The position numbers and the translations under genes are program-made. The notes beneath the pieces were generated by a model. That model was not told the origin of the DNA. It was given only the letters and a program-made list of their open reading frames with translations, and did no database searches. A stretch of 64,000 nucleotides of DNA from Candidatus Kaiserbacteria bacterium (lineage in GTDB: Bacteria; Patescibacteriota; Minisyncoccia; Phycocordibacterales; UBA2100): NCBI GenBank assembly GCA_016217925.1, contig JACRFK010000010.1, positions 4,784-68,783 on the forward strand, written 5' to 3'. This document shows, piece by piece, positions 24,225-55,454 of this stretch; position 1 is the stretch's first letter, and every line of letters starts with the position of its first letter.

Positions 24225-24258
24225 TACTGTTCTTGTCGTCGCGACCGTGGTGGGTGCG

Positions 24259-38574: not shown

Positions 38575-39239
38575 CTTTTTCGGAAGACTACTTTGACGCA
38601 ATTGCCGCCCAGTATGATTACTGGAAAAAAAAGAATGCCTATTACCACGAGAATCTGAAACTATTGTACGGGCAATTCATCCCGAAAGGGGCGCGAGTTC
38701 TCGAAATCGGCTGTGGCACGGGGGACATCTTGGCACGCCTTGAGCCGAAAGAGGGAAGGGGGGTCGACGTGAGCGAAGAGATGGTGGAAATCGCACGGCG
38801 CAAATATGCGGGCAAATCGAATCTTCAGTTCGAGCGCGAAGATATTTTTGAAAGCACGAAAATGTTCGGATATCCGTACATTTTTCTTGCCGACGTGCTG
38901 GAGCATGTGGGCGGTCTCGAGAAATTTGTGCGACAACTTGCCGCCCGCACGGACTCGGGTAGTACGGTCGTTATCTCCGTCGCCAACCCGCTTTGGGAAC
39001 CGGTACTCATGCTCGCTGAGAAGCTCCATATGAAAATGCCCGAAGGCCCACACACACGCGATCCAATACAAGAAACGGAACGCATCTTCCGTGCATCCGG
39101 TTTTACCATCGTTGAACGCGGGTATCGGCTCCTCATTCCTAAGAAGATCCCTGGTGCCGATTGGCTTAATGCCCGATTCCATCACTTTCGGTTCTTTGCT
39201 CCGCTCGGTTTCGTTATTTTTTGGGTGCTCCGCCGATAG
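38571..39239 (+). CDS. class I SAM-dependent methyltransferase
   Basis: 222 aa. Intact motif I VLEIGCGTGD. GTG start overlapping the upstream stop (GTGA). Confidence 0.75.
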   Translation: MTFSEDYFDAIAAQYDYWKKKNAYYHENLKLLYGQFIPKGARVLEIGCGTGDILARLEPKEGRGVDVSEEMVEIARRKYAGKSNLQFEREDIFESTKMFGYPYIFLADVLEHVGGLEKFVRQLAARTDSGSTVVISVANPLWEPVLMLAEKLHMKMPEGPHTRDPIQETERIFRASGFTIVERGYRLLIPKKIPGADWLNARFHHFRFFAPLGFVIFWVLRR

Positions 39240-39699
39240 AAGGCATTACACCCTCGTGAGTATCGTGGAACACCAGGTGTTTGTAGCTGAAGTAGTTCAT
39301 CATGGCGATGAAGACACCGCTTATGAGCTGTGCCCCCAAGTAGTGAAGTCCCCCGTATTCAACAAGCACAAAGATAAGCGTTGTATTGATCCCAAGCCCG
39401 ACAAACACAATGGTCAAAAAGGTGAGTGCCTGCGCATACACATGATCTCTGGATACATCCTTAAACGTCCAGAGCTTTTGCATCGAAAAACTTACCCAAA
39501 AGGCGAGCATGAATGCAATTATCGATGAGAATACGTACCAGACGCTGAAGAAGTGAGTAAGGGAAAAGAGGGTTCCAAGGTTTACCAAAGTCGCAATACC
39601 ACCGGAGATACAGAATCGGATGATGCGCATCGGCGAAGGATACAGGGCGTTGGCGCGAGCGCGGACCTCTTTGATCAGGAGCAAGAGGTTCGCAATCAT
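39214..39699 (-). CDS. gtrA: GtrA-family membrane protein (polysaccharide synthesis/flippase accessory)
   Basis: 161 aa, 4 TM. RFCISGGIATLVNLGTLFSL is typical of PF04138. Confidence 0.75.
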   Translation of the reverse strand: MIANLLLLIKEVRARANALYPSPMRIIRFCISGGIATLVNLGTLFSLTHFFSVWYVFSSIIAFMLAFWVSFSMQKLWTFKDVSRDHVYAQALTFLTIVFVGLGINTTLIFVLVEYGGLHYLGAQLISGVFIAMMNYFSYKHLVFHDTHEGVMPSIGGAPKK

Positions 39700-39788: not shown

Positions 39789-40766
39789 ATGTCTGATTTT
39801 TATACAGGAAAAAAGGTGCTCGTGACCGGCGGGGCTGGTTTTATCGGCAGCCACGTTGTAGAAATGCTCGTGGAGCGTGGGGCGCATGTCACCGTGCCGG
39901 TACGTTCAACGACCAAGACAGATTTTCTGGACAGCGTTCGTGACCGTATATCCATCGTCGAAGCGGACCTACGCGATCGGCCTCGTGTCGATGCGCTCAT
40001 GCAAGGTCAAGAGATCGTCATGAATCTTGCCGCCGCCAAGGGCGGGGGCATAGCACATAGTATGAAGCATCACGGGAGCCTCTTCCGCGACAACATGCAA
40101 CCCTATCTGCAAGTGCTCGATGCTGCGCGCGAGGCAGAGGTCGAGCGATTCTTGGTGGTGAGCTCGGCCTGCGTGTATTCACGTGAGGCGAGCAACCACG
40201 CGCTCGAGTCGGAAGGATTTTTGGGCGTGCCGGAAGCGGCCAATGCCGGATATGGCTGGTCCAAGCGTATGGAGGAATACGTGGGCCAAGCGTACGCAGC
40301 GGAGTTCGGTATGAAGGTCGCTATCGCGCGCATGTACAACGGATATGGTCCGCGAGACGATTTTTTCGCAGAATATAACCACGTCATCCCCGGACTCATT
40401 AAGAGGATATTCGAAGGTGAAAATCCGCTCGTCGTCTGGGGAACCGGCACGCAGACGCGCTCCTTCATATACGTCACCGACTTCGCCCGCGGTATCCTCC
40501 AGGTCTGCGAGAAATACGCCGTTGCTGACCCACTCAATATCGGGAGTGACGAAGAGATTTCCATTGGTGACTTGGCGCACCTTCTCATTGAGCTTTCGGG
40601 TAAGGAAGTGAAAGTCGAATTTGATACGACAAAGCCGGACGGGCCATTGCGCCGAAGCGCCGACACCAGCAGAGCTTTTGAGAAAATCGGTTTCCGCACC
40701 GAGGTGCCTCTGCGCGAAGGTCTGAAGAAAAGCATAGAATGGTATCAAGCAAACAAACCACAATGA
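39789..40766 (+). CDS. NAD-dependent epimerase/dehydratase (GDP/NDP-6-deoxyhexose reductase or epimerase-like)
   Basis: 325 aa. VLVTGGAGFIGSHVV and YGWSK (YxxxK). Confidence 0.75.
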   Translation: MSDFYTGKKVLVTGGAGFIGSHVVEMLVERGAHVTVPVRSTTKTDFLDSVRDRISIVEADLRDRPRVDALMQGQEIVMNLAAAKGGGIAHSMKHHGSLFRDNMQPYLQVLDAAREAEVERFLVVSSACVYSREASNHALESEGFLGVPEAANAGYGWSKRMEEYVGQAYAAEFGMKVAIARMYNGYGPRDDFFAEYNHVIPGLIKRIFEGENPLVVWGTGTQTRSFIYVTDFARGILQVCEKYAVADPLNIGSDEEISIGDLAHLLIELSGKEVKVEFDTTKPDGPLRRSADTSRAFEKIGFRTEVPLREGLKKSIEWYQANKPQ

Positions 40767-41428
40767 CCGTCACTCTTATCGCAGCGACACTCAATGAGCT
40801 TGAAGCCGCGAAGGTTGTCTTGCCGCGCATTGGCCGGAAGTATGTGGATGAGATCATCATCGTCGACGGCGGCTCGACCGACGGTACAGTCGAATTCTGC
40901 AAGAGCCAGGGATACACGGTTTTCCAACAGATTGAGCCCGGGTATGGCTCTGCTATGAAGGAGGCGATCGCGCGGGCGAGCGGGGATATCATTATCGAAT
41001 TTCCACCCGATGGAAATTCTATGCCCGAAAAAATCCCCGATGTCATAAGGAAATTGCAGGAAGGCTACGACTTCGTCATAGCGTCGCGCTATGCGCCGGG
41101 TGCGCGGAGCGACGACGACGACTTTCTCACGGCGATAGGGAATTGGGGGTTTACATTCGCGACGAATCTTCTCTTTTGGAGTTCGTATACTGACGTTCTC
41201 GTAGGTTTTCGCGGCTATCGCAAGAGTGCATATGAGAAGCTTGATATGACAGCCACAAGTCTCGATTGGTCAATGCAAATGCCCATACAATTCAGGAAAA
41301 AGAGATTGCGGGTAGCTGATATTCCCGCAATTGAGCCGAAGCGGATCGGCGGTGTGAGAAAGATGCGCCCATTCAGAACGGGCTGGCGGATTCTCAAGAT
41401 ACTCATTAGAGAGCGTTGTAGTCTATAA
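40763..41428 (+). CDS. GT2 glycosyltransferase (Dpm1/GtrB-like, short)
   Basis: Internal ATG overlapping the upstream stop (ATGA). LIAATLNELE...IIIVDGGSTDGT...FVIASRY. Confidence 0.75.
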   Translation: MTVTLIAATLNELEAAKVVLPRIGRKYVDEIIIVDGGSTDGTVEFCKSQGYTVFQQIEPGYGSAMKEAIARASGDIIIEFPPDGNSMPEKIPDVIRKLQEGYDFVIASRYAPGARSDDDDFLTAIGNWGFTFATNLLFWSSYTDVLVGFRGYRKSAYEKLDMTATSLDWSMQMPIQFRKKRLRVADIPAIEPKRIGGVRKMRPFRTGWRILKILIRERCSL

Positions 41429-41432
41429 ATGT

Positions 41433-42695
41433 ATGTACAAGAATATTTCGCGATGCCGCATCTGTGGCAATGAGCAACTGAAAGAGGTACTCAATCTCGG
41501 TGAGCAATATCTTTCGTCTTCATTCGTAAAGAATAACGACGATGTTGATGAGGTCTCCAAGACACGCGTACCGCTCACCCTGCTTCTCTGCGACATCTGC
41601 GGCCTGGTCCAACTCCGCGAGACAGTAGACCGCGACTTGATGTATCGTAGCTATTTCTATCGCTCCGGAGTGAATCCCATGATGCGCGACGCGCTCGCCG
41701 ATGTAACGCGGGACATTAAAGCGCATGCAAATTTGAAAGAAGGTGACTCAGTACTTGATATCGGTTGCAACGACGGCACGATGCTTACGTACTTCCCGAT
41801 AACCATGCGTCGCATCGGTATGGACCCCGCGCAGAATATCAATAGGAGTTCTCTCGACCCTTCGATTACTGTCATTCAAGACTATTTTTCCGCCGATAAG
41901 GCTAGAGCGGCAAACGGTGGCGAATTCTTCAAGGTGGTATCTTCCATCGCGATGTTTTATGATCTCGACGACCCGAACGCATTCGTATCCGAAGTAAAAT
42001 CGGTGCTCGCTCAGGGCGGCACGTGGTGTGTGCAACTGAGCTACCTAGCGACGACGATACAGACGATGAATTTTTATGACATCTGCCATGAACATTTGCT
42101 CTACTACTCTTTGAGGACACTCAAATTTCTCATGGAGCGTCACGATCTCAAGATAATTGACGCCTCGCAAAATGATGTGAACGGTGGCAGCTTGCGATTC
42201 TTTGCGGTGCACGCCGATGACCCTCGCGATGTGTCGCCGGGTATGCGCGAAATAGAGCAAGCCGAGCAGGTACTGCGCCTTTCAGAAAAAGCGACGTACG
42301 AGCAGTTTGCTGCATCAATCGAGCAGCTGAAACGCACCACCCTCGATTTTCTAGAGGCAGAGAAAAAAGCCGGAGGAACCGTCGTCGGGCTTGGGGCCTC
42401 GACCAAAGGCAATGTACTCTTGCAGTACTTCGGTATCACGAAGGAAATGTTGCCTGCGATCTCTGACCGATACGCCGAGAAGGTGGGCTTGCGTACACTC
42501 GGCACCGATATCCGCGTCGTCTCGGAAGAGGAAGCGCGCGATATGAAGCCGTCGGCCATGCTCGTCCTCATCTGGTTCTTCAAAGACGAATTGTTGAAAC
42601 GTGAGAAGCAGTATCTGGAAGACGGAGGAAAATTATTCTTCCCGATGCCGTACCCGCATGTGGTAACAAAGGAGGGAGAAAAGCGGTTGAGCTAG
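41433..42695 (+). CDS. TylC3-type NDP-hexose C-methyltransferase-like protein (zinc ribbon + class-I MT + C-methyltransferase C-terminal domain)
   Basis: 420 aa. N-terminal CRICGNEQL...CDICGL zinc ribbon, motif I VLDIGCNDG and a long C-terminal domain. It is a paralog of the gene at 48213-49418. Confidence 0.7.
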   Translation: MYKNISRCRICGNEQLKEVLNLGEQYLSSSFVKNNDDVDEVSKTRVPLTLLLCDICGLVQLRETVDRDLMYRSYFYRSGVNPMMRDALADVTRDIKAHANLKEGDSVLDIGCNDGTMLTYFPITMRRIGMDPAQNINRSSLDPSITVIQDYFSADKARAANGGEFFKVVSSIAMFYDLDDPNAFVSEVKSVLAQGGTWCVQLSYLATTIQTMNFYDICHEHLLYYSLRTLKFLMERHDLKIIDASQNDVNGGSLRFFAVHADDPRDVSPGMREIEQAEQVLRLSEKATYEQFAASIEQLKRTTLDFLEAEKKAGGTVVGLGASTKGNVLLQYFGITKEMLPAISDRYAEKVGLRTLGTDIRVVSEEEARDMKPSAMLVLIWFFKDELLKREKQYLEDGGKLFFPMPYPHVVTKEGEKRLS

Positions 42696-42700
42696 GGCTA

Positions 42701-43459
42701 TTACTTCCGGAGGACCCACCAGTGAGGGAGCGATAGATTTTCGTCCTTCTTGTAGCCGGAACGTTTGATGAGTAGCTCTTCCGCTATCATTTTGATGTGC
42801 GGCAGGGACTGCTGCTCTTTTGTGTAGTCCGAGAAGTTGTACATCGTGCGATAAAAATACCACTGGCTCAAGCTACGCATCATATTTGCTTTGAGGAACG
42901 AAAGGCTCCATGGAATGTCGTCGAGCAAGAGGTAGCCGCCTGGCTTCAAGAGTTTGTCCGCGAGCATCATCGCGGGTAGGTCTATGTAAAAGGTATGATG
43001 ACCATCCACGTAAATAACGTCGAATTGTTCGCCCTTTTGGAGCATCTCAAAAAGAGTCCATGAATACGTGCCAGTGGAGTTCATCGCGAAGGAAATGTTT
43101 TTTGTATCGAAGCCCTTTATCGCCAATTCTTCTTCGTGGCTCTCGCAGACGCTCTTGAAATCGCACCCAACGTACGAAATAGAATGTTCGTTGATGAGTT
43201 TCAGCCTCTCGAAATGTGGGAATTCACCGATGCCGACTTCCAAGAATTTCCCACCTGGTATACGCTCCAGAAGTTTTCTGATACTTCTCTCCTTGCTCAC
43301 CCTCGGATCTTCTTCCGTGTCTTTCTCTGCGTGTGTAAAACCGAGATTTCGAAGTTTAAATAGGAGCCACAGCGGAAAATAGAGAAGATGAAGAAGCTTT
43401 TTGCTTCCACGTACTTTCAAAAGTCTAAGGAATTTTATTGTCTCCATATGCTTCGTCAT
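42701..43459 (-). CDS. class I SAM-dependent methyltransferase (AT-rich)
   Basis: 252 aa. FLEVGIGEF...VIYVDGHH. Lower GC than the flanking genes. Confidence 0.6.
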   Translation of the reverse strand: MTKHMETIKFLRLLKVRGSKKLLHLLYFPLWLLFKLRNLGFTHAEKDTEEDPRVSKERSIRKLLERIPGGKFLEVGIGEFPHFERLKLINEHSISYVGCDFKSVCESHEEELAIKGFDTKNISFAMNSTGTYSWTLFEMLQKGEQFDVIYVDGHHTFYIDLPAMMLADKLLKPGGYLLLDDIPWSLSFLKANMMRSLSQWYFYRTMYNFSDYTKEQQSLPHIKMIAEELLIKRSGYKKDENLSLPHWWVLRK

Positions 43460-44727
43460 ACGGTTGCTCCCTCATGCTTTGCCTGCCAAAAGAGATATCC
43501 AAAGACTACGAACGTAATGGCTTGAGAAGTGATGGTCGCCCATATGGCTCCCCAGATGCCAAAGGGTGGCAGGAGGAGAATAAACAACGCAATTCTTACG
43601 ATGGGCAATATTGCTTGCGAGATGTAGAGCTCCTTTTTTTTCATGTGTGCCACTAAGGCACTGCTCAATATCGAAACGGGAGTAAGTACAAGGGAGAGGG
43701 CTAGTATTTGGGTATAGACGATTGCCCCGACGTACGCTGGGAACAAGAGCTTAAAAAGGAGAGGGGCAAAGAGAATGTAGCAGACGACAATGGCAAGCAT
43801 CACGCCCACGAGAAACACTACTTTTCTCGGAAGAGATTTTTGCAGCTCCGAAAAATTGCGCTCGCTTAACTTGGGGAAGGCGAGCTTCACAGGAATATCA
43901 ACGAGTAATTTGAGTTGCGCGACTGGCGTCTGGGCGAAGGCGTAGAGGGCAAGCGGTGCTGCACCCAAATAATGGAAGACGAGAACCTTGTCGATATTTT
44001 CTCCGACTTTTCCTAAGATTCCCATAAAGCTGATGTGTTTGACGAAGGGAATCGTCTCCGGGTCTACGGAATTATTCGGGTGGTATTTCTGTACAGTGAA
44101 GTAATGAAGTATAAGATTTATTGCGATACCGGAGACGAAATACACGAGTATAAGGTGTACCGGATTTTGGGTGAGGAAGAGGGCGGCGATTAAGATAAGT
44201 GCAGGAACGAAATCAGCGATACTGTCAAATATGGACTGTGTCTTGAAATCTTTTTTCCCTGAAATGAATTGGCTGAAGAAGGAGGAGCTCGTAAGGAGTG
44301 TGTTGCACGCTGCGACAAGAAGGAAGGAAATTGCGAGTGTATTGTTGTGATTAACGAAATAATACAACGCGACCGCCAAAGAGATGCCCGTCATACCCAC
44401 CCCCCATTTCATGTACGCGGAGATGCCTGAGCGGAGTGCGCCCTCGTACCCTCGAGCAACAGCCTGTGTAATGCCAGTTGACATACCCGTGAGAGCGAAA
44501 GCGCCGATGACGCCGGCTCCTGCGAGTACGAACTTATAAGTACCGAATACCTCAGGCGGAATGAGATTTGCCAGCGCGGCTGCGAGAAGAAGCGAGGAGA
44601 ACATCCCTACACCTTTTGCGAGCGTAAGCCAAAATCCTCCCTGCACCATATAGAGCATATCGGTCTTGGTATACATCTCGCTCCATCGCAAGAGTGCAAG
44701 AAATGTATCCTTTGATCGCCTTAACAT
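43456..44727 (-). CDS. wzx: Wzx-like oligosaccharide flippase (MOP superfamily polysaccharide biosynthesis protein)
   Basis: 423 aa with about 12 TM. Start overlaps the downstream gene stop. Confidence 0.75.
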   Translation of the reverse strand: MLRRSKDTFLALLRWSEMYTKTDMLYMVQGGFWLTLAKGVGMFSSLLLAAALANLIPPEVFGTYKFVLAGAGVIGAFALTGMSTGITQAVARGYEGALRSGISAYMKWGVGMTGISLAVALYYFVNHNNTLAISFLLVAACNTLLTSSSFFSQFISGKKDFKTQSIFDSIADFVPALILIAALFLTQNPVHLILVYFVSGIAINLILHYFTVQKYHPNNSVDPETIPFVKHISFMGILGKVGENIDKVLVFHYLGAAPLALYAFAQTPVAQLKLLVDIPVKLAFPKLSERNFSELQKSLPRKVVFLVGVMLAIVVCYILFAPLLFKLLFPAYVGAIVYTQILALSLVLTPVSILSSALVAHMKKKELYISQAILPIVRIALFILLLPPFGIWGAIWATITSQAITFVVFGYLFWQAKHEGATV

Positions 44728-44796
44728 GTCTGGATATGCTACAGCGAAAGCGCTCTGCGTGCCAGTAATACCGCATGATGATACAATCCGGCACGT

Positions 44797-45963
44797 ATGG
44801 ACGATGTAGTAGGTGTGACCACCTCATCACGGGCGGGGGATACCATCAGTACGACTTCGCGGCAGCCCTTTTTTGTCGCCTACATCGGCTGCCTCATCGT
44901 CATCGCAAGTCTCTCGCTCTACTTTCTCCCTCATATTCTTCAGGGTGATGCACTTAGCTATGTCGATGCCGCCAAGGCATATGCGCAAGGCCAGCATTTA
45001 AGCATCGATCTGTCAGGTGAAATTACTCGGGAAATCGTCGCCGTGCATCGCATGCTGACAACGACGCTCGGTATACAGGCTCTCCGCTTCTTTTCAACTA
45101 TCGCAGGCTCGTTTGAGGTTGGTTGGCTCTTAATGGATACTGTTCTCTTTTTCGGCGGAAGCATCGTCTTGTACCTGCTCCTTGCGCGATTCTACGAAAG
45201 CGAGCGTGTGGCATTCATCGGCGGGCTCTTCTACGCCGGCAATTATTCGATGCTTTCGCAAGGCATGGGGTACTTCATGGACATAGGGGGATGGTTCTTT
45301 TATCTCCTTGCGCTGCTGCTGATATACCTCTATATCGAGTCCGGGCGGTATCGAATGCTTGTGATCGCGGCACTCACGATTGCAGTCGGTGGGTTCTTTA
45401 AAGAAAATGCCTACATGGCTTCAATTCCTTTAGGCGCGATACTTCTTTTCGAGTACTACAAAAAGCCATTGACACTTCTCGCAAAATCTGTTCCGCTTGG
45501 CCTGCTCGTCGTCGGACCGGCTGTATTACAGCACCTCTACATATACCGTGAATACGGGTATACATACGCGTATTGGATTCATGTGAGTCAAGACTACTAC
45601 GAGTACAACTCGGTTATTGTGGAGTACATAAAGAGTTTTGGTTCTCTGCTCACGTTCCTCGCGCCTGTTGCACTCATTGGTGCATATGAATTTGTGCGTC
45701 GCTTTTTTGATCCCACACTCGATCACAAAAAGAAAGTCTTTCTCGTGTCTGTGCTTGCGTCATCCATTCCGGCCGTATTATGGCCTGCGATTACGCAACG
45801 CGTTCTTTTTCTCGCTGTTCCCGGGCTTATTCTGCTCGCGGGACTGTGTATCAAGCGATTCGAGCGATATTGGTACGCATTCGTGCCGCTTATCATTTTG
45901 TATTTGCTTGCGGCTCTCACGATGGATTCCTTTATTCTCAACTACGTAAATCTGCCGATGTAG
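44797..45963 (+). CDS. polytopic membrane protein, candidate Wzy-type polymerase or GT-C-like
   Basis: 388 aa, about 10 TM. No soluble domain or diagnostic motif seen. Assigned by context next to wzx. Confidence 0.4.
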   Translation: MDDVVGVTTSSRAGDTISTTSRQPFFVAYIGCLIVIASLSLYFLPHILQGDALSYVDAAKAYAQGQHLSIDLSGEITREIVAVHRMLTTTLGIQALRFFSTIAGSFEVGWLLMDTVLFFGGSIVLYLLLARFYESERVAFIGGLFYAGNYSMLSQGMGYFMDIGGWFFYLLALLLIYLYIESGRYRMLVIAALTIAVGGFFKENAYMASIPLGAILLFEYYKKPLTLLAKSVPLGLLVVGPAVLQHLYIYREYGYTYAYWIHVSQDYYEYNSVIVEYIKSFGSLLTFLAPVALIGAYEFVRRFFDPTLDHKKKVFLVSVLASSIPAVLWPAITQRVLFLAVPGLILLAGLCIKRFERYWYAFVPLIILYLLAALTMDSFILNYVNLPM

Positions 45964-45964
45964 T

Positions 45965-47065
45965 ATGTCGCGAAAGCCCCTCGTGCATCTCGCGTATACG
46001 GTCCCACTCGGTCGGACGCGCGCCAGGCGTGCGCTCGACAAAGTGCTTCGACTGATGCACGTGACTCCGCTACACCGATTTGCACACGACGCGCTTATTC
46101 CTTGGCAGCACCCGATACGTGCGCCGCATAGCATCACACACAACCTTCTCGACGCTATTCGCGCACGCGGGTACGATGTCCGCCTCTATAGTTTGTATGA
46201 GCACACGGTCACGCATCTCGAGCCGGGGGATATCTTTATCGGGCAGCCCGTGCCAAGCGGCGGCTTCGGTGTCACACGAGCAGATACAGACGACACTGAG
46301 TCGGTAACTTCGAGGACAATACGCAAGTACCCGAGCGCTCGAAACTTTCTTATGATGCCGTATTCGCATGATGCCCAATACTCACTCTTCTGGAAGGATC
46401 TGTTGCGAGATAACAATACCGCAGGCGGTGGAGCTATTCTCGTAGGTGGGCAGATTTGGGAGCGTGACTGGGAGACAAAATCACCATTTGCAGACCTCGG
46501 ACGACTTAAGAAAATCCACCTAACCTGCATGGGCATTGACGCATCAGAGTATCCGCTCGTCAAAAAGAGTTTCAACCCAAAGGGAAAACGGAAATATCTC
46601 TATATCGGGCACACTGCCTGGTACAAAAATACTGTCGAGCTTGAGCGCATAGCAGCACGGATGCCGGAGTACGAATTCGCGCACATTGGAGGAGGGGAAG
46701 TGAAAGGGTGGAAGAAGCTCGCGAATTTTGCGCCGCTGACACCTGAATATATGAAGAAGCTTGCGAGTGAGTACGACATCTTTTTGAATGTCAGCACGGC
46801 AGATCCGCAGGCAACGACCATCGTGGAGCAGATGTGTTTCGGCTTTGCGATCGCGTGTACGCCGGAAACGGGCTATGACTATCCGGCGCTGGCGACTCTG
46901 CGTACCAACGATACAGAGCACAATATCCGCGTTCTACAGCACCTACAGCAAGTCGATGAGGAAGAACTGCTTATCCAAGCCCGCGAGAATAGGAGAATTG
47001 CCGAAGAGAAACACGGGTGGGCTCAGTTTACGGACCAAGTCCTCGATTTCACCGAGATCCGTTAA
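45965..47065 (+). CDS. hypothetical protein, possible GT-B-like glycosyltransferase
   Basis: 366 aa. The C-terminal half (KRKYLYIGHTAWYKNTVELERIAARMPEYEFAHIGGGEV) resembles a GT1/GT4 C-domain only weakly. Confidence 0.35.
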   Translation: MSRKPLVHLAYTVPLGRTRARRALDKVLRLMHVTPLHRFAHDALIPWQHPIRAPHSITHNLLDAIRARGYDVRLYSLYEHTVTHLEPGDIFIGQPVPSGGFGVTRADTDDTESVTSRTIRKYPSARNFLMMPYSHDAQYSLFWKDLLRDNNTAGGGAILVGGQIWERDWETKSPFADLGRLKKIHLTCMGIDASEYPLVKKSFNPKGKRKYLYIGHTAWYKNTVELERIAARMPEYEFAHIGGGEVKGWKKLANFAPLTPEYMKKLASEYDIFLNVSTADPQATTIVEQMCFGFAIACTPETGYDYPALATLRTNDTEHNIRVLQHLQQVDEEELLIQARENRRIAEEKHGWAQFTDQVLDFTEIR

Positions 47066-47196
47066 GTACGAAGAACTTACTCCCCCTGCACCCTTGAGCC
47101 TGCAGGCGACGAAGTTACTTTTCTGAATTTGACGAGCTACAAGAAACAGGGCATTATCTGGACCGGCTTGAAAATCAGCCGAGAAAGGGGGCCGAG

Positions 47197-47745
47197 ATGG
47201 CTCACAAGGCAAAGGCTGCGTTCGTTCCCGCCTATGGGTTGCGGAATGACGGTTGGCTCCATGCTCGGCTTGTTCGGCCCGTCCGGCTGGTAGCGCAGAG
47301 CGTAGAGTCTGTACGTCAGGCAGCGCAATTGCTCAACGATAGCAAGGTCGAGCACATCATCCTCTCGACCTGCTATGACAGCTGGGAAATGGAGGCGGAG
47401 CTCAAAAAAGCTCTGCTCGCATCACTCGGGGTTGACCTCACTCGTGTGAGTGTCATCCCTGCCGTGGTCAACACCAAGACGGAAGTTGAAGCGGCAGGGC
47501 GGATCATTCACGAGTTCGCGATTGAAAAAATCACCATCGTCGCGGACAAGTGGCATCTGCCTCGGGTGCACGAGGTTTTCCGCATGTGGTTCCCAGGCGT
47601 CGGGATCGAAGGGCATTCATTTACAACGCCTCGATTCGAAGTCGTGTATGAGCCCTTGCTTATCAAGAGAATTCGCGGCGGCAACGCGTTGCTCTGGGTC
47701 TTATGGAACTGGGCGTTGTTGCTCAAGCTGAAAATGCGGGGGTGA
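47197..47745 (+). CDS. DUF218/YdcF-SanA-like protein
   Basis: 182 aa. TIVADKWHLPRV resembles the DUF218 HMxR region. Confidence 0.45.
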   Translation: MAHKAKAAFVPAYGLRNDGWLHARLVRPVRLVAQSVESVRQAAQLLNDSKVEHIILSTCYDSWEMEAELKKALLASLGVDLTRVSVIPAVVNTKTEVEAAGRIIHEFAIEKITIVADKWHLPRVHEVFRMWFPGVGIEGHSFTTPRFEVVYEPLLIKRIRGGNALLWVLWNWALLLKLKMRG

Positions 47746-47791
47746 TTTCCCGCGACCCGGCCGCGCGCATGTGCGGCCGGGTAATCGTTTA

Positions 47792-48208
47792 CTACTGCAG
47801 CGTCCAGTCTGTTATTTTCTTCTTCGCCTGTTCGTGAAGGGGAATCTTCAGGCGAAAGGTATCGTTCTCATAATTGTCGCCACCGCGCGGGCCGTTTACA
47901 AAGCTTAAAAAGGCGCATTTTTGGAGAGCGATGAATTCATGAGCCTCACCTTTGTCCCAGCGGGTCACATCGTTTTGCCTGACGACAAATTTCTCGATTT
48001 TCTTACTCCCTTGTTTTCGGCTGAAGGCCTGCATACTGCCGGAGAGCATAAAATCAGTTTGTTGTGATTTCTTGTGGAAGTGATTTCCCCGGACTGACCC
48101 TTTGTTTGAATACACGATAACGCAGTGCTGGTACGGCTCTTTGACAAAAATATCCATTATGGTTCCGCGAGCGTCTTTGAAATCGATTTTTCTCTTTTCT
48201 CTTTTCAT
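47792..48208 (-). CDS. FdtA/WxcM-like cupin (NDP-4-keto-6-deoxyhexose 3,4-ketoisomerase family)
   Basis: 138 aa. RGNHFHKKSQQTDFMLSGSMQA matches FdtA RGFHAHKKLEQVLVCLNGSCRV. Confidence 0.6.
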   Translation of the reverse strand: MKREKRKIDFKDARGTIMDIFVKEPYQHCVIVYSNKGSVRGNHFHKKSQQTDFMLSGSMQAFSRKQGSKKIEKFVVRQNDVTRWDKGEAHEFIALQKCAFLSFVNGPRGGDNYENDTFRLKIPLHEQAKKKITDWTLQ

Positions 48209-48212
48209 ATGG

Positions 48213-49418
48213 CTATTCTATGACATGAGGGGTAATGAAGCTCAGGTGGGGGTATTTCGGAGAGATCTTGCCTTTCAAGAAATCGGCGATATTCCAAGCG
48301 AGAATGAGGGCGTGCGTAACGTCTTCGGTTATAGCGTCGTCAGAGCGTATCGGAAGGTGCGAACCGGGAGTATATTTGCCGATTTTTAAAGGGGATGCGT
48401 CGGTGGCGAAGTCAATGAGCGTGGTGTCTATGCCACAGTAGTTTAAAAGCGTATTTCCTTTGGCAGCCGCACCTATCGCTACCACTTTCCCGCCTCCTGT
48501 ACGAGCATCCACCAATTCTTTAAGCAAATGTATCTTGCAGTCCCTAACGCTTGCTGCGAATTTCTCCCACGTTCCCACAGTGTAAAGCCCGGATTTCTCC
48601 TCTAAAGCGATTTGCTTTTTTACCAAGGGGCTTTCTTCGCCGAAGCCGACAAAGATCCGTATCGATCCGCTCATGTAGTCATTTTCCTCAAGGTGGGTAA
48701 TGGAAAGACCAAATTTCTTGAAAAAGGGGACAAGAGGCTTCACGGCGACGTACGATACGTGTTCAAGGTAGATGACGTCAAAATGTTTCTTCCTGATAAT
48801 TTCCAGGAAGTAAGGAAGTTCAATCACAAAGCTGCCTTCTTTGTCCAAAATGGAAATCACACATTTCATGAATTCATCAAGAGGAGAAATGTGATTGAAT
48901 GCGTTCGTTATCGTAATTGCTTTCGCTCGACCCTTTTTCAAGATTATTTTGGCGGACGATTCGTTAAAAAAATCATTGATCGTAGGAATGCCATTCTTCT
49001 CGGCAAGCGCCACAATGTTTGGAGCCGGATCCACTCCTTGTATCGTTGCTCCGAGATTTTTGAATGCACCAAGGAGAGTGCCGATGTTGCTGCCTATGTC
49101 CACGATAAGTTCTCCCTTCTGTACTCCCGCTCGCTCGCTTACCTCCTTTGCCATATCCGTGAAGTGCCCTACTGAAATCTTAGAATTGCCGGAGTCGTAG
49201 CTGTAATCATTTTCTTGATAGCGGACTTCTGCGGGGACGACAAAACTGTTCATCCCATGTCCACAATTTTGGCAGAGAAGTACGGAAAGAGGATACCGTC
49301 TCTCCGGTTCTTGGAGTTGATTCTCTTTGAGAAAGAAGTCCGCCAGCGGATGGAATCCAAGATCGAGGACCTTCTTTAGAGACTGAGAACCGCACAAATG
49401 ACAGTTCGTGACATTCAT
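48213..49418 (-). CDS. TylC3-type NDP-hexose C-methyltransferase-like protein, second copy (AT-rich)
   Basis: 401 aa. CHLCGSQSL...CQNCGH zinc ribbon, motif I IVDIGSNIG and the C-terminal domain. Same architecture as 41433-42695 but markedly lower GC. Confidence 0.7.
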   Translation of the reverse strand: MNVTNCHLCGSQSLKKVLDLGFHPLADFFLKENQLQEPERRYPLSVLLCQNCGHGMNSFVVPAEVRYQENDYSYDSGNSKISVGHFTDMAKEVSERAGVQKGELIVDIGSNIGTLLGAFKNLGATIQGVDPAPNIVALAEKNGIPTINDFFNESSAKIILKKGRAKAITITNAFNHISPLDEFMKCVISILDKEGSFVIELPYFLEIIRKKHFDVIYLEHVSYVAVKPLVPFFKKFGLSITHLEENDYMSGSIRIFVGFGEESPLVKKQIALEEKSGLYTVGTWEKFAASVRDCKIHLLKELVDARTGGGKVVAIGAAAKGNTLLNYCGIDTTLIDFATDASPLKIGKYTPGSHLPIRSDDAITEDVTHALILAWNIADFLKGKISPKYPHLSFITPHVIE

Positions 49419-49804
49419 AGGGCGATTTTATCATCCACGAAGGGTCCATCCTTGAAGGCGTACATGAGGGCGTCTTCGATGACCCGTACCTCATGACCGC
49501 CCCGTATGATGAGCAGGCATTGGCCCTCCGTAACGCGTTTATTCTCAATTAGTTCTCCTTTCTCGTCAAAAATACTTGCCTCAATCGCACCCTTGATCAC
49601 GACGATGGCCTCCTGGGGTTGTTGGGTGGTCTTAGTGATTTTTTTGTGGGTATGTTTTGCGACCACATGGCCACTCTTCCGTTTCATGAGGAGTAATTGG
49701 ATTGACCACGCAGGATCAGTGGCAGGAAACGTGCCCTCTTGGATTGATTCAAGATCCAGGACGACCGCAAACACTTCTCCTCCCGATTTGATTTCAGTTC
49801 TCAT
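49415..49804 (-). CDS. FdtA/WxcM-like cupin, second copy
   Basis: 129 aa. HVVAKHTHKKITKT (the HxHKK signature shared with 47792). Confidence 0.5.
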   Translation of the reverse strand: MRTEIKSGGEVFAVVLDLESIQEGTFPATDPAWSIQLLLMKRKSGHVVAKHTHKKITKTTQQPQEAIVVIKGAIEASIFDEKGELIENKRVTEGQCLLIIRGGHEVRVIEDALMYAFKDGPFVDDKIAL

Positions 49805-50774
49805 TGGGGTGTGCCATATCGTAATCTATCATCGCGTGAACAATCTCGTGAAATTTCATTTTTGGTTTCCAGCCTATCTTTTTTATTTTTGAAGCATCTC
49901 CAAGAAGCAGGGGAACCTCATTCGGCCTCTTGTAGCGCTCGTGGATTTGTACGTATTTCTTCCAATTCAGCCCGACGTATGAAAACGCCTCTTCGACAAA
50001 TTCCTTGATGGTATGGGTTTCTCCTGTCGCGACGACGTATACGTCCGGTTCCTTTTGCTGCATGATGAGATATATCGCCTCAACAAACTCCGGGGACCAT
50101 CCCCAGTCGCGTTTTGCGTTTAGATTTCCGAGCACCAAATTTTCTTGAAGCCCTTGTTTAATCCTAGCCACTGCTTTGCTCACTTTTTTTGTGACGAAGG
50201 TACCGCCGCGTCGCGGGCTTTCGTGATTGAACAGTATGCCTGTAGTCGCAAACATGCCGTATCCGTCGCGGTATTGTCTTGTGAGATGGTACGCAGCCAA
50301 TTTTGCGACACCATACGGACTTTGAGGATTCATCGGTGTCTTTTCGTTATACGGGGCCGGTACACCCGGGACTCCAAACATCTCCGAACTCGACGCCTGG
50401 TAAAACTTGGTATGGGGGGATAGTTTCCTCAGCGCTTCCAGGACGTTCAATACACCGACCGCATTCGCCTCCAGGGTATATTGCGGTACCTCAAAGGACA
50501 CTTTTACATGAGACATGGCGCCGAGGTTATAGAATTCATCAGGCCGAACTTCTGAAATTATGCCGGCTATAGATGGACTGTCCGTGAGGTCACCGTGATG
50601 CGTATGAAAATCCGGATTTCCGACAATGAGATGGTCTATCCGAGCTGAGGCAAAAGAAGAGAGCCGGCGCATTATCCCGTGCACCTCGTATCCTTTTGAG
50701 AGAAGAAGCTCCGCTAAATATGAACCGTCCTGTCCCGTGACGCCACTTATAATGGCTTTTTTCTTATTCTTCAT
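49794..50774 (-). CDS. gmd: GDP-mannose 4,6-dehydratase (lower-GC copy)
   Basis: First ATG (aa 9; the track start is GTG). [36 protein letters not shown]. Confidence 0.9.
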   Translation of the reverse strand: MKNKKKAIISGVTGQDGSYLAELLLSKGYEVHGIMRRLSSFASARIDHLIVGNPDFHTHHGDLTDSPSIAGIISEVRPDEFYNLGAMSHVKVSFEVPQYTLEANAVGVLNVLEALRKLSPHTKFYQASSSEMFGVPGVPAPYNEKTPMNPQSPYGVAKLAAYHLTRQYRDGYGMFATTGILFNHESPRRGGTFVTKKVSKAVARIKQGLQENLVLGNLNAKRDWGWSPEFVEAIYLIMQQKEPDVYVVATGETHTIKEFVEEAFSYVGLNWKKYVQIHERYKRPNEVPLLLGDASKIKKIGWKPKMKFHEIVHAMIDYDMAHPNEN

Positions 50775-50894
50775 AGACGAGTTTGAGTCATCATACACGT
50801 TTTGACATCTTTTTCATCTGATCTTTGAAAGAATCTCCAAGAAGAAAGCAATACTAGCAGACTGCTATTCTTCGGACAAGCTATCGATGTTATC

Positions 50895-51593
50895 ATGCAG
50901 ATCATGCGCTCGGTCGCTGTTGTGGGTTCACAAGGATACGTCGGGAGCGTTTTATACGAGCGGCTTCTCCGCTCTTCAGAATATGCCCCAGAAGGGGTCA
51001 CAAGAGAAAACCACTCCATCATGAAGGAGAAGGATTTTGATATACTCATCAATTGCGCGATGCCATCTGGAAAGTTCTGGGCCAACAATAATCCCGAGGT
51101 TGATTTTAAAGAAACAGTAGAGAAAACAGCAAATCTTTTATATGGATGGAAGTTCAAAAAGTTCGTCCAAGTAAGCACTGTATCAGCGCGATGCCAATTA
51201 GACACCATATATGGTCGCCATAAAGCGGCTGCAGAGAAGCTGTGCGATTTTGGTAACAATCTCATTGTCCGCCTCGGGGCACTCTATAGCCCGGAAATGA
51301 AGAAAGGCGTGCTTGTGGACATGATCCAAGGCAAGAAGGTTTACGTAAACGGAGCAAGCCGCTACCCCTTTATTTCTGTATCCTTTTGCGCAGATTGGGT
51401 AGTGTCAAACCTTGACCGGGAGGGCACTGTAGAGATCGGGGGAACGAACGCCATTGCTTTGAAGGATGTGGCGGACCACATTGGGGCGAGCGTGGAGTTT
51501 GAAGGAGCTATCCATCATCTTGATATAGAAAGTACGGAAGATCTCCCGGAAGCAAGCGATGTCTTGCATTTCCTTGATTCATTGAAGAAGTGA
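50895..51593 (+). CDS. short SDR-type NAD(P)-binding sugar-nucleotide reductase-like protein (RmlD-like)
   Basis: 232 aa. VAVVGSQGYVGS Rossmann motif, YGRHK (YxxxK). AT-rich. Confidence 0.5.
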   Translation: MQIMRSVAVVGSQGYVGSVLYERLLRSSEYAPEGVTRENHSIMKEKDFDILINCAMPSGKFWANNNPEVDFKETVEKTANLLYGWKFKKFVQVSTVSARCQLDTIYGRHKAAAEKLCDFGNNLIVRLGALYSPEMKKGVLVDMIQGKKVYVNGASRYPFISVSFCADWVVSNLDREGTVEIGGTNAIALKDVADHIGASVEFEGAIHHLDIESTEDLPEASDVLHFLDSLKK

Positions 51594-51629
51594 TACGGTA
51601 TTGCCGCTCGCTCAGCATAGTGAAGAAAC

Positions 51630-52616
51630 TCAGCCCCTGCCCAGAATTTTTTTAAATAATCGGTGCAACATTCGTTGTGCTCGAGCTACTATTCTTACAA
51701 ATGTACGGGAAACATACCAAAAGAAAAAGCGATTTGCTGCTTGCAGGCGAATGTAGTTTCTCTTCAGGAACGGATCGCGGGTAATATAATCAATATCTTT
51801 TTCCCTTATAATTCTATCCTCAAGCACGCCTCCTGCTGCGGTTAAAAGTTTTTGGTGGCGCGAGAAGAATAGGCGGGCATTTCTTTGGATGGTTGAACTT
51901 GCCGACATAACCCCAGGGGCTGTTCTTGTTTTCCCCCAGCTGCTGTCTGAGCGATAGTTAATCCAAAAAGCTCCACACTTCATTCCGTAGAGCCACGTGG
52001 CACGCAGTACAAGGTCTGCTTCGTCGAATTGTCCCGGAGCAAAGAGCTCGTCGAGATATCCAAGTTTTTTTAGGATGTCATTTCGAAATGCAATAGGTCC
52101 TCGATTGATAATATTACGAATCGTAAATGTATCTCGCGGGAGTGACAAAAACGCTCTTGCTGCATAATCATAGTAACAAGGGGCACCTTCGGTATCCCCC
52201 TGTTTTACGTTAAACGCCGCCTTACTCGAAACGGCAAATATGTCATCAAAAGCGCGAAGAGGGTACGTAAAACGCCGTTCCCATCCTTTTTCTTCAATAA
52301 CTACATCGTCTTGGAGGGTGATGAGATACTCCTCTCGCGCAAGGCGAAATCCGATATTATTAGCTCTGAGCTCGTAGACATTTTCTGCGGTTGCGATTAT
52401 CAGGTTTTTCAGAAGAGTGACCTTATTATCCTTAAGAAACTGTTCGCTAATTTTTTGAGATCCATCAGTGCACCCGTCAAAAACCAAAATCAGATTAAAT
52501 GGCGTGGTCGTGTTGTTCAAGATTCCCGCGAGGACTCTAGGAATAAGTTGTTCTTGATTGTGTATACTGATAACAATATCAAGCGCAGTGAGCGGTTTTG
52601 GGTGCGTAGACGACAT
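51630..52616 (-). CDS. GT2 glycosyltransferase
   Basis: 328 aa. LILVFDGCTDGS and LQDDV (DxD). Coordinates taken from the ORF track; my own count of the start codon differed by 1 nt in this line. Confidence 0.75.
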   Translation of the reverse strand: MSSTHPKPLTALDIVISIHNQEQLIPRVLAGILNNTTTPFNLILVFDGCTDGSQKISEQFLKDNKVTLLKNLIIATAENVYELRANNIGFRLAREEYLITLQDDVVIEEKGWERRFTYPLRAFDDIFAVSSKAAFNVKQGDTEGAPCYYDYAARAFLSLPRDTFTIRNIINRGPIAFRNDILKKLGYLDELFAPGQFDEADLVLRATWLYGMKCGAFWINYRSDSSWGKTRTAPGVMSASSTIQRNARLFFSRHQKLLTAAGGVLEDRIIREKDIDYITRDPFLKRNYIRLQAANRFFFWYVSRTFVRIVARAQRMLHRLFKKILGRG

Positions 52617-52625
52617 ATTTTTTGC

Positions 52626-53561
52626 TCACGCGCTGTTAAAAGAATTTTTGAACCATACGTACGTGCTCGCTAGTCCTTGCTCGAGCGGAATCGTGTGTTT
52701 CCAACCGAGTGCGTGGATCTTGCTTACATCTAGCTTCTTTTGGGGCGTACCGTCGGGCTTAGTTTTGTCCCAGACTATTTTCCCATTGTAGCCGACGGTG
52801 GCGGCAATGAGTTCAGCAAGCTCCCTGATGGTCACATCTTCTCCCGTACCGATGTTGATGATAGAAGGATCATCGTATGTTTCCATGAGGAAGACGCAAG
52901 CGCTTCCAAGGTCGTCAACGTGCAAAAATTCGCGTTTGGGGGCGCCGGTGCCCCAGACCGTGACCGTCGGGGCGTCGGACATTTTTGCCTCGTGGAAACG
53001 TCGTATCAGCGCGGGAAGGACATGCGAACGCTCGGGGGAGAAATTGTCGTTGGGACCATATAGATTCGTCGGCATGACGGAAATGAAATTGCAGCCGTAT
53101 TGACGGTGGTACGCCTGGCACATTTCAATTCCCGCGATTTTGGCCATGGCATACGCGCTGTTCGTTTCTTCGAGAGGACCGGTCATGAGGTACTCCTCCT
53201 TGATAGGCTGGGGTGCGAGTTTGGGGTAAATGCATGAACTCCCGAGGAAGAGCAATTTCTTGACCCCGCTTTTGTATGCCTCGTGCAAGACATTGGTCTG
53301 CACGATGAGGTTCTCGCGGATGAAATCTGCCGGATAGGTATTGTTGGCCATGATGCCTCCCACGCGTGCGGCGGCGAGGAAGACGTATTCGGGCCTTTCA
53401 GTTTCAAAAAATGCCCGAACAGCGATTGGATCCAACAGGTCGAGCTCGTCATGTGTTCGTACAATAATATTGGTGTATCTTTTCCGTTCGAGCTCTCGTA
53501 CGATAGATGAGCCGACGAGGCCTCGGTGTCCGGCGACATATATTTTGGAGTTCTTTTCCAT
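52626..53561 (-). CDS. fcl: GDP-L-fucose synthase (GDP-4-keto-6-deoxy-D-mannose 3,5-epimerase/4-reductase)
   Basis: 311 aa. [15 protein letters not shown] is a typical Fcl/WcaG start. YAMAK (YxxxK). Confidence 0.85.
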
Positions 53562-53564
53562 TCT

Positions 53565-54041
53565 TTATTTCAACGCTTTTAAGGCTCCTTCAATCCGTGC
53601 CTTCACGTTGGGGTGTAGAGTCGGATCGCTCACAGAGAACCAGCGTATTTCGCTGTGTTGGCTATCCGGCTTCATCGATTCGTCCGCAATAGTGCATACA
53701 AAGTATACATCGACAGCGTGGTAGTTTACTCCCTCAAAGATGGAGGAATCGTTTATTTCGTTGAGGACACCGGCAAACGTAAGCGCTGTCGGGGGAATAG
53801 AGAGTGCGAGCTCTTGCTTGGCGATGCGACAAGCGGCCTCCAAGAAGTTTTCATTCTTGAAGAAGCGGCCGCCGAAACTGTAAAATTCTCCCGCATAGGG
53901 TTCATTGGTCCGCTTGCCAAGAAGTACCTTCGACTTGTCGGGATTCAGGAATAGTACGTCAACGGTGACGAGCGGCATGTTTTCCATCGCGGCGCGGTAG
54001 AGCTCTAATGGCACCATTCCTCCTATAGGTTGTTTCATCAT
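53565..54041 (-). CDS. NUDIX hydrolase, GDP-mannose mannosyl hydrolase (Gmm/WcaH)-like
   Basis: 158 aa. NUDIX fold (GKRTNEPYAGEFYSFGGRF...E..AACRIAKQELAL). Position gmd-...-fcl-gmm as in colanic-acid-type loci. Confidence 0.65.
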   Translation of the reverse strand: MMKQPIGGMVPLELYRAAMENMPLVTVDVLFLNPDKSKVLLGKRTNEPYAGEFYSFGGRFFKNENFLEAACRIAKQELALSIPPTALTFAGVLNEINDSSIFEGVNYHAVDVYFVCTIADESMKPDSQHSEIRWFSVSDPTLHPNVKARIEGALKALK

Positions 54042-54322
54042 CCCGTTAGAGATAGGAAGCCTTTCAAGCGATTCTTGATGTAGCGCTTACCCATCCCAAA
54101 TTTAAGAAATAATTCTCTCGACCGTGCGTCATCTTCGTTCCTGCACATTTCGTAGTATATCAACTCTAGCGGACGACGTCCTTTTGTCGAACGACTAAGA
54201 CCGTCGCTGTGTTGCTTGAAACGCTTCCGTAGGTCGTTCGTGAACCCCGTATACGTTTCCCCGTCTTTGAGGCTTCGGAGAATGTAAGTATAGAAACTTT
54301 CTTTATCTCTAACGGGAATCAT
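54038..54322 (-). CDS. GIY-YIG nuclease domain protein (stand-alone, 94 aa)
   Basis: [29 protein letters not shown] is the GIY-YIG motif. Wedged, with overlapping stops and starts, between the gmm-like gene and the high-GC gmd. Confidence 0.7.
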
Positions 54323-55368: not shown

Positions 55369-55454
55369 CGGTGCATGGTAGCCTCGCTGGGCTCATTTCG
55401 CAAGGAAATCCGGTTGCATGCAGTAGACGAGGAGTGCATACTTCGGCGCATGAG

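Follow-up and report, generated by a model that had tools for sequence, protein, structure and literature searches.

Two C-methyltransferase gene cassettes in a surface-glycan locus of a Candidatus Kaiserbacteria genome and their predicted role in the synthesis of GDP-linked branched sugars

Gene content of the locus

We analyzed a stretch of 64,000 nucleotides from the genome of a Candidatus Kaiserbacteria bacterium (assembly GCA_016217925.1, contig JACRFK010000010.1, forward-strand positions 4,784 to 68,783; hereafter, the window) that encodes two candidate sugar C-methyltransferases (MTs), MT1 (41433..42695, plus strand) and MT2 (48213..49418, minus strand). Family scans of the open reading frames (ORFs) placed both genes in a surface-glycan island that occupies approximately 25.6-58.6 kb of the window and includes glycosyltransferases (GTs) of the GT4 and GT2 families, GT-C/PMT_2 proteins, Wzx, a Wzy_C/TPR protein, GtrA, two gmd genes, fcl, and a GDP-mannose hydrolase-like NUDIX protein. 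The first-pass annotation of this DNA had proposed one pathway equipped with both methyltransferases. Instead, the locus contains two independent cassettes: (i) module A, comprising gmd2-cupB-MT2-cupA and SDR232, which encodes a short-chain dehydrogenase/reductase (SDR), and (ii) module B, comprising SDR325-GT2_229-MT1 together with gmd1.

The GC content of the genes at 42.7-52.6 kb is 0.44-0.50 versus the window mean of 0.537, which is compatible with a glycan cassette at 42700-52600 that is hypervariable or has been exchanged horizontally. Two genes inside this low-GC center, encoding a DUF218 protein and a 366-residue protein, have a GC content of 0.54-0.56. The GC contrast drawn earlier between the two methyltransferase genes holds in its direction (0.512 for MT1 versus 0.465 for MT2), but MT1 is not a high-GC gene, as both values lie below the window mean.

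Two C-methyltransferases from different subfamilies

A Pfam profile search confirmed that both ORFs encode the combination of PF08421, class-I methyltransferase, and PF08484 domains that had been assigned to them. MT1 matches PF08421 with an expectation value (E) of 4e-18 (65.6 bits), the class-I methyltransferase domain with E 4e-15 (PF13489, 56.5 bits), and PF08484 with E 3e-42 (144.5 bits); the respective values for MT2 are 9e-17 (61.5 bits), 9e-11 (42.2 bits), and 1e-35 (123 bits). Both proteins exceed the gathering scores of PF08421 (31.3) and PF08484 (23.5). Among solved structures, both match MtmC (4rv9) best, with E 5e-58 in the case of MT1 and 3e-77 in that of MT2; TcaB9 and KijD1 come next. 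The MtmC alignment is near full-length (residues 4-412 of 420 in MT1 and 3-387 of 401 in MT2).

The two proteins had been described as paralogs; however, they share only 28-30% identity and fall into separate ancient subfamilies, which rules out a recent duplication. Average-linkage clustering on sequence identity, a distance-based procedure rather than a full phylogeny, recovered the two-way split in 20 of 20 column resamplings of a set without the C5-methyltransferases NovU and CloU. MT1 and 61 sampled relatives cluster with TylCIII, EryBIII, AviG1, and Coxiella CBU_0691 (42%, 40%, 42%, and 36% identity to MT1, respectively), while MT2 and 37 sampled relatives cluster with MtmC, TcaB9, and KijD1 (36%, 30%, and 31% identity to MT2). 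The MtmC, TcaB9, and KijD1 sequences were obtained from the PDB alignments, and those of TylCIII, EryBIII, AviG1, and CBU_0691 from the supplementary alignment of PMC3539893. A scan of the genome collection with MT2 as a single protein produced 15 loci, none of them from Coxiella.

The roles of the TcaB9 active-site residues reportedly derive from mutagenesis by the Holden laboratory. The four cysteines (Cys4) of MT1, MT2, and nearly all homologs align with the Zn ligands of TcaB9, and equivalents of its Tyr76, Glu224, and His225 are present in MT1, MT2, TylCIII, EryBIII, AviG1, CBU_0691, MtmC, and KijD1. In MT2 and all 37 of its sampled homologs, the Cys4 set and five TcaB9 active-site positions (Y76, H181, Y222, E224, and H225) are kept. 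MT1 has Asp at the position of H181 and Cys at that of Y222, as do TylCIII, EryBIII, AviG1, CBU_0691, and most MT1 homologs (Asp in 59 of 61). A degenerate MT1, or one with another activity, is ruled out by the same substitutions in TylCIII, EryBIII, and AviG1, which have demonstrated roles in the biosynthesis of mycarose, erythromycin, and avilamycin (PMC3539893). Judged from the alignment, the Asp/Cys pair is a signature of the subfamily and not a defect. Together with the matches to solved 3-C-methyltransferases, the conserved His and Tyr of both proteins support the earlier assignment of MT1 and MT2 as TylC3-type NDP-4-ketohexose C-methyltransferases with catalytic residues in place; MT2 is predicted to be a 3-C-methyltransferase homolog.

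The gene cassette of MT2 (module A)

Adjacent genes on the minus strand are tightly packed, with an 11-nucleotide overlap between gmd2 (49794..50798, with an alternative ATG at 50774) and cupB (49415..49804), a 4-nucleotide overlap between cupB and MT2, and a 4-nucleotide gap between MT2 and cupA (47792..48208). Since these ORFs overlap or abut, gmd2, cupB, MT2, and cupA form a minus-strand operon in this order. The two cupin genes with HxHKK motifs thus flank MT2 as annotated; gmd2 is next to them, although upstream in the direction of transcription rather than downstream. Gmd2, a second GDP-mannose 4,6-dehydratase, passes the TIGR01472 equivalog cut-off (420.8 versus 415 bits), as does the product of gmd1 (576.8 bits), to which it is 52% identical.

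A gene absent from the first-pass annotation, SDR232 (50895..51593, plus strand), is transcribed divergently from the gmd2 operon. It encodes a truncated extended SDR (PF01370, E 1.5e-8), a putative 4-ketoreductase, that contains the GxxGxxG and YxxxK motifs and invariant S94, Y106, and K110; its profile matches NDP-sugar epimerases and reductases at E 1e-7 to 1e-3. The ORF at 50771-51265 (minus strand) was dismissed because it runs antisense to SDR232, matches no family, and is missing from the gene calls of the source contig.

The five genes gmd2-cupB-MT2-cupA-SDR232 are colinear in the Patescibacteria loci L002/L087, L088, and L089. The cassette occurs with a displaced SDR gene in L090, L091, and L094, and its first four genes occur in L092. 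Outside Patescibacteria, an MT2-type gene is paired with cupA in two Rubrivivax metagenome-assembled genomes; in Sphingorhabdus, where the preceding gmd is 60% identical to gmd1; in a gammaproteobacterium, where SDR genes are next; in another genome (3.86 Mb), where a short SDR gene is next; and in Omnitrophota, where the order is gmd-MT-cupA-DegT aminotransferase. The gene that follows cupA outside Patescibacteria encodes each time a reductase or an aminotransferase able to act on a C4 keto group. The Omnitrophota locus (L005, 4816-13050) also contains two radical-SAM/SPASM genes and three more class-I methyltransferase genes, which points to an extensively modified, branched 4-amino sugar similar to kansosamine.

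The closest relatives of the locus are L086 and L093, with MT2 proteins 91-92% identical to that described here. At 9203-11570 of L086, a 526-residue secreted-looking protein and a class-I methyltransferase are encoded in place of cupA and SDR232; the corresponding gap in L093 is at 9200-9207.

The cupins CupA and CupB

CupA and CupB are cupins of 129-138 residues. Both contain the HxHKK motif (GNHFHKK in CupA and AKHTHKK in CupB), and an HxH...(Q/E)...H pattern is invariant in both alignments. The relationship between the two proteins is marginal (23% identity over 78 residues; hhalign probability 33%).

CupA has 466 detectable relatives, and in five or more lineages cupA directly follows an MT2-type gene. 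Its AlphaFold2 model (mean predicted local confidence, pLDDT, of 96.9) is a compact all-beta cupin without long helices. Foldseek matched this model with similar strength (E of 3e-8 to 5e-7; template-modeling score, TM, of about 0.6-0.7) to RmlC-type epimerases, FdtA, QdtA, HCAN_0198, the CapF cupin, and Cj1430/GDP-heptose epimerases. The strongest match of the CupA profile is to metal-binding cupins (oxalate decarboxylase, 1e-8), followed by the cupin domain of Cap5F, residues 257-352 (E 1.8e-5), the RmlC homolog of S. tokodaii (1e-4), and QdtA/FdtA (0.02-0.04); the RmlC family model PF00908 is not passed (E 0.12). Residues D18, R39, H42, H44, Q49, H89, and R107 are invariant in CupA, and we take its DxRG, RGxH, and GxAHxF motifs to resemble those of RmlC. 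CupA also matches PF14667 (Polysacc_synt_C, nominally a flippase membrane domain) with 29.2 bits versus a gathering score of 28.7, as do all 119 members of the CupA alignment (best E 2.7e-11). Given the compact all-beta model without long helices, this match is not meaningful, and PF14667 looks like a contaminated or mislabeled Pfam model.

CupB has 90 detectable relatives, and all those with a given source name are from Patescibacteria; it is thus an orphan cupin restricted to this phylum. Its score against TIGR04366 (WbuC cupin) is 32.2 bits versus a cut-off of 42 (E 8e-8), and a search of its profile against PDB sequences found nothing meaningful. Residues H50, H52, E64, and H103 are invariant.

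The gene cassette of MT1 (module B)

Two genes beside MT1 were also missed in the first-pass annotation. SDR325 (39789..40766, plus strand) encodes a divergent GMER/Fcl-like epimerase-reductase, the proposed partner of MT1. Among NCBIfam models, this protein scores highest against GDP-L-fucose synthase, with 175.9 bits that fall short of the cut-off. It shares 31% identity with E. coli GMER and retains S107, C109, Y136, K140, and H179. GT2_229 (40739..41428, plus strand) encodes a GT2 similar to polyprenyl-phosphate hexose transferases (PF00535, E 2.6e-19) that scores 97.8 bits against AglJ and 80.1 bits against dolichyl-phosphate hexose transferase, both below the cut-offs. GT2_229 is located near gtrA and PMT_2-type GT-C genes, which suggests delivery of the module B product as a lipid-phosphate-linked sugar. 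The gtrA gene (39214..39699, minus strand) encodes a small membrane protein (PF04138, E 3.6e-24), a candidate flippase for lipid-phosphate-linked sugars, and is kept beside the MT1 module in L093. The enzyme set that has been proposed for virenose, namely gmd1, MT1 of the CBU_0691 subfamily, and SDR325, is co-located in the window.

Relatives of MT1 with 43-75% identity were found in 80 metagenomic loci, including a gmd1-like gene in 26, a GMER-like SDR gene in about 55, and a small GT2 gene in 25; the order gmd-SDR325-GT2-MT1 also occurs in L008, L009, L011, L013, L019, and L074. When only the 37 MT1-type loci with a length of 8 kb or more are counted, gmd is present in 17, a GMER-like SDR gene in 34, and RmlA in none; six of the 37 have only generic SDRs, 24-30% identical to RmlB. 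Fusions of an MT1-type protein with an SDR domain were observed in P0357, P0377, P0380, P0385, and P0426. NCBIfam scans of three of these proteins (P0357, P0380, and P0385) gave gmd as the sole strong match (136-216 bits, versus 42-66 bits for dTDP-glucose dehydratase). Other fusion partners of C-methyltransferases, found among P0416, P0460, P0360, and P0432, are a DegT aminotransferase, a GT4, a GT15-like mannosyltransferase domain, and an NTP_transferase.

Other genes of the locus

A second full gmd-nudix-fcl set, absent from the first-pass annotation, occupies 52626-55368 on the minus strand. It consists of gmd1 (54319..55368), encoding a canonical GDP-mannose 4,6-dehydratase; the NUDIX gene (53565..54041), encoding a GDP-mannose mannosyl hydrolase-like protein (PF00293, E 2.6e-12; NF011963, 67.3 bits, below the cut-off); and fcl (52626..53561), encoding a predicted GDP-L-fucose synthase (GMER). 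Fcl scores 497.4 bits versus the NF047922 cut-off of 500, shares 59% identity with E. coli GMER, and has every catalytic residue. A 94-residue ORF at 54038-54322 (minus strand) overlaps both gmd1 and the NUDIX gene by 4 nucleotides. No family model matches this ORF, which probably represents a genuine small gene in the gmd1-nudix-fcl operon.

Between MT1 and cupA, the island encodes a class-I methyltransferase (42701..43459, minus strand; Methyltransf_24-like, PF13578, a weak match of 26.7 bits), a possible sugar O-methyltransferase that adjoins MT1 also in L006, L086, L093, and L094; a Wzx-type flippase (43456..44727, minus strand; PF01943, E 1.4e-14); a PMT_2-like GT-C membrane glycosyltransferase (44797..45963, plus strand; PF13231, E 2.3e-7, with a weak Agl23-like match); the conserved 366-residue protein (45965..47065, plus strand), which has no Pfam or NCBIfam match and is syntenic in L086, L093, and L094; and the DUF218 protein (47197..47745, plus strand; PF02698, E 1.9e-9). 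A further GT2 gene (51630..52616, minus strand; PF00535, E 1.2e-13) is located between SDR232 and fcl.

Three fusion ORFs are found elsewhere within the island: a GT4 with UDP-glucose/GDP-mannose dehydrogenase domains (31381-33357, 658 residues), a GT4 with a PMT_2 GT-C (34396-37155, 919 residues), and a class-I methyltransferase with an AglJ-like GT2 (37159-38574, 471 residues). Immediately upstream of the island, an ATPase similar to the TrwB/type IV secretion system coupling protein and a PKD-domain protein are encoded (22320-24224 and 24088-25617).

Reconstruction of the pathways and their alternatives

From the domain families, active-site conservation, synteny, gene fusions, and predicted cupin folds, we infer the nucleotide carrier, the position of methylation, the roles of the cupins and SDRs, the order of steps, and the products as follows. 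The two modules probably act independently, each converting GDP-mannose to a GDP-activated C-methyl-branched 6-deoxyhexose. In module A, MT2 would deprotonate the carbon beside the 4-keto group, most likely C3, via the base equivalent to His225 and transfer the methyl group from S-adenosylmethionine, as suggested by its family and active site. Fold, gene order, and co-occurrence would place CupB as an epimerase of an alpha-carbon, probably before methylation, and CupA as an epimerase at C5 after methylation, and the 4-keto group would then be reduced by SDR232. The genes for C4-keto enzymes after cupA fit the action of CupA on a 4-keto intermediate that already carries the methyl group. Epimerization of C5 would be its simplest role, because C3, once methylated, can be neither epimerized nor oxidized. 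In module B, which would draw on gmd1, MT1 is predicted to methylate the same 4-keto intermediate, and the GMER-like SDR325 to epimerize and reduce the methylated product. GT2_229 may load the resulting sugar on polyprenyl phosphate, GtrA may flip the lipid-linked sugar, and the PMT_2-type GT-C may transfer it.

The first-pass annotation had proposed a GDP-linked branched 6-deoxyhexose, and this reading is the best supported one because (i) genes of both MT types repeatedly lie in synteny with gmd in other genomes, (ii) fusions of MT1-type proteins with Gmd-like domains exist, and (iii) the search for RmlA-like ORFs in the window and in 98 related loci detected none. Several observations weigh against it. 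All solved or studied relatives of the two enzymes use dTDP sugars, as is stated also for TylCIII (PMC3539893), and we found no characterized GDP-dependent C-methyltransferase in the full-text literature, the coverage of which was incomplete. The fusion of an MT with NTP_transferase, P0460, a Pacearchaeota protein, does not discriminate between carriers. The window includes no canonical ManC (PF00483), only the fusion ORF at 55225-56331. The roles of the cupins and the order of their steps are deduced from fold, gene order, and co-occurrence; SDR232 is weakly similar to known reductases (E 1e-7) and not to CapF (E 0.17). Finally, cupA and SDR232 are both absent from L086 and L093, so neither is obligatory, which suggests that they form an accessory unit, dispensable where another reductase exists.

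The ORF at 55225-56331 (plus strand, 368 residues) combines a cytidylyltransferase-like domain, similar to RfaE domain II, with a C-terminal cupin of the mannose-6-phosphate isomerase/GDP-mannose pyrophosphorylase type, and could encode a non-canonical NDP-mannose-forming enzyme. Its true start is probably further downstream, because the 5' end overlaps gmd1 on the opposite strand.

According to an alternative explanation, the MTs act on dTDP-, CDP-, or UDP-4-keto-6-deoxyhexoses supplied by genes beyond the window, as in a mycarose- or vinelose-type route, and the proximity of gmd reflects mere co-location of glycan genes. Only 64 kb of the genome lies within the window, every characterized relative (MtmC, TcaB9, KijD1, TylCIII, and EryBIII) uses dTDP sugars (PMC3539893), and the P0460 fusion would suit a non-GDP carrier. 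A generic extended SDR encoded at 25630-26481 has dTDP-glucose dehydratase as its best match, although a weak one (86.8 bits versus a cut-off of 365). We nevertheless consider this explanation unlikely: neither an RmlA- or ManC-like ORF nor an equivalog-level RmlB was detected within the window, the genes of module A are translationally coupled with gmd2 by overlapping ORFs, the adjacency of gmd recurs across phyla for both MT1 and MT2 types, the fusions with Gmd-like domains are covalent, and the RmlA count in the related loci is 0 of 98.

The second alternative assigns to one or both cupins the role of a GDP-sugar 3,4-ketoisomerase of the FdtA/QdtA type, in which case a 3-keto sugar would be methylated or otherwise processed to C2- or C4-branched or 3-amino sugars. 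The annotation of the cupins as FdtA-like is correct for the fold and the motif: the HxH pair is present, the CupA model superposes on FdtA, QdtA, and HCAN_0198 (TM of about 0.7), and 27 of 119 CupA relatives match the FdtA family model PF05523 at E<=0.01. FdtA membership is not established, as CupA itself scores 16.7 bits versus the gathering score of 23, CupB has no match to this model, and both the cupin domain of CapF and the RmlC homolog match the CupA profile better than FdtA or QdtA does. A DegT aminotransferase gene does follow the cupA relative in Omnitrophota; however, none was detected among the scanned glycan-locus ORFs at 28-58 kb, and the sole aminotransferase found in the window, of class I/II (11553-12632), is encoded beside racemase and Mur ligase genes. 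Moreover, MT2 retains the full active site of 4-keto-dependent C3-methyltransferases, and a C3-methylated sugar is incompatible with a 3-keto group. A ketoisomerase role is thus about as improbable as a non-GDP carrier, and on the available comparisons the cupins are more likely epimerases.

Sequential action of MT1 and MT2 on one sugar, for instance at C3 and then at C5 to give a noviose-like, doubly C-methylated deoxyhexose, would suit the location of both genes within 7 kb of one glycan island, their joint presence in L086, L093, and L094, and the existence of C5-methylating members of this family such as NovU, but it is highly improbable, since a separate dehydratase and separate finishing enzymes accompany each MT, either cassette stands alone in most other genomes (an MT2-type gene occurs in 1 of the 80 MT1 loci), and module A is present without MT1 in L002/L087, L088, and L089.

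As a more specific and tentative proposal within the two-module GDP-linked reconstruction, module A may be a self-contained route, not described before, in which five enzymes lead from GDP-mannose to a 3-C-methyl-6-deoxy-L-hexose with the use of two uncharacterized families of very small cupin epimerases, one of them confined to Patescibacteria, and a truncated SDR; modules A and B may then provide the first tractable soluble enzymes for demonstrating GDP-dependent C-methylation. We found no paper on this Patescibacteria cassette in the full-text literature, within its incomplete coverage.

To our knowledge, C-branched sugars are rare in cell-surface glycans, and the best-known case is virenose of the Coxiella O-antigen, a virulence determinant. 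The view that C-methyltransferases outside antibiotic clusters are unusual was not upheld: the family comprises 11,298 clusters at 50% identity for E<=1e-3 (2,227 for E<=1e-30), and both cassettes are widespread in uncultivated bacteria. The locus and the hundreds of related loci detected in the analysis show that gmd-linked C-methyltransferases are common among uncultivated bacteria and no oddity of Coxiella or of antibiotic clusters. The virenose pathway, and GDP-dependent C-methylation by any enzyme, have stayed unproven for more than a decade (PMC3539893; PMC13252051), and the locus offers two compact and tractable candidate pathways for this open question of enzymology. Their reconstitution would reveal which carrier each MT subfamily uses, give a function to two orphan cupin families, and yield GDP-activated branched sugars for glycoengineering. 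If the tentative five-enzyme proposal for module A is true, the enzymes of the two modules would settle the way in which virenose-type sugars are made, and ultra-small bacteria of the candidate phyla radiation (CPR) would carry two different branched sugars on their surface. The locus is a sign that genome-reduced CPR episymbionts, for which surface chemistry probably matters in attachment to the host, have elaborate surface glycans.

Comparison with known systems

CupA resembles the dTDP-sugar 3,4-ketoisomerases FdtA, QdtA, and WlaRB in its length of about 135 residues, the cupin fold with a TM of about 0.7, and the HxH pair. It differs in the sub-threshold family score (16.7 versus 23 bits), the profile match of E 0.02-0.04, the lack of a partner aminotransferase, and a chemistry that is incompatible with a product quaternary at C3.

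Pairs of a cupin epimerase and an SDR that act on 4-keto sugars are known from CapF, which has cupin C3-epimerase and SDR domains, from the GDP-heptose epimerases of C. jejuni (Cj1430; PDB 8dcl and 8dak), from Yersinia WbcA, and from RmlC/RmlD. The CupA profile matches the cupin of Cap5F and an RmlC homolog, the CupA model matches Cj1430 and the GDP-heptose 3-epimerases, and CupA and SDR232 are gained and lost jointly. Unlike in these systems, no family threshold is passed, and there are two unrelated cupins per cassette. The notion of CupA and SDR232 as a split CapF was supported for the cupin half but not for the SDR half (E 0.17 against Cap5F, and no match in a single-sequence phmmer search), and it is retained as an analogy only.

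The antibiotic-pathway enzymes TylCIII, EryBIII, MtmC, TcaB9, and KijD1, which methylate C3 in the pathways of dTDP-L-mycarose, D-mycarose, D-tetronitrose, and D-kijanose, share with MT1 and MT2 the three-domain architecture, the Zn-binding Cys4, and the Tyr/Glu/His set. The mycarose-type order of TylCIII, TylK, and TylCII, that is, methylation, epimerization, and 4-keto reduction, resembles the logic proposed for the modules. However, the antibiotic enzymes act on dTDP-2,6-dideoxy or 3-amino sugars and are encoded in antibiotic clusters, whereas the genes described here are associated with gmd and with surface-glycan assembly. The epimerase candidates are cupins of 129-138 residues instead of RmlC-type proteins of about 200 residues, and the reductase candidate is a truncated SDR of 232 residues.

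The closest parallel to module B is the GDP route to virenose (6-deoxy-3-C-methyl-gulose) of the Coxiella burnetii O-antigen, which was proposed in 2011-2012 with Gmd CBU_0689, the TylCIII-like CBU_0691, and the GMER-like CBU_0688 (PMC3204966, PMC3539893). A 2026 preprint describes the virenose pathway as not fully characterized and names CBU_0683 as the methyltransferase (PMC13252051). The Coxiella pathway is itself a prediction. Module B contains the same three enzyme types, with MT1 in the CBU_0691 subfamily (36% identity and the Asp/Cys signature) and SDR325 bearing the GMER catalytic residues of CBU_0688; it differs in its CPR host and in the lipid-phosphate-type GT2 gene inserted in the cassette. 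Among pathways with a C-methyltransferase, module B is a member of an already predicted kind, whereas module A is set apart by its two orphan mini-cupins and its mini-SDR.

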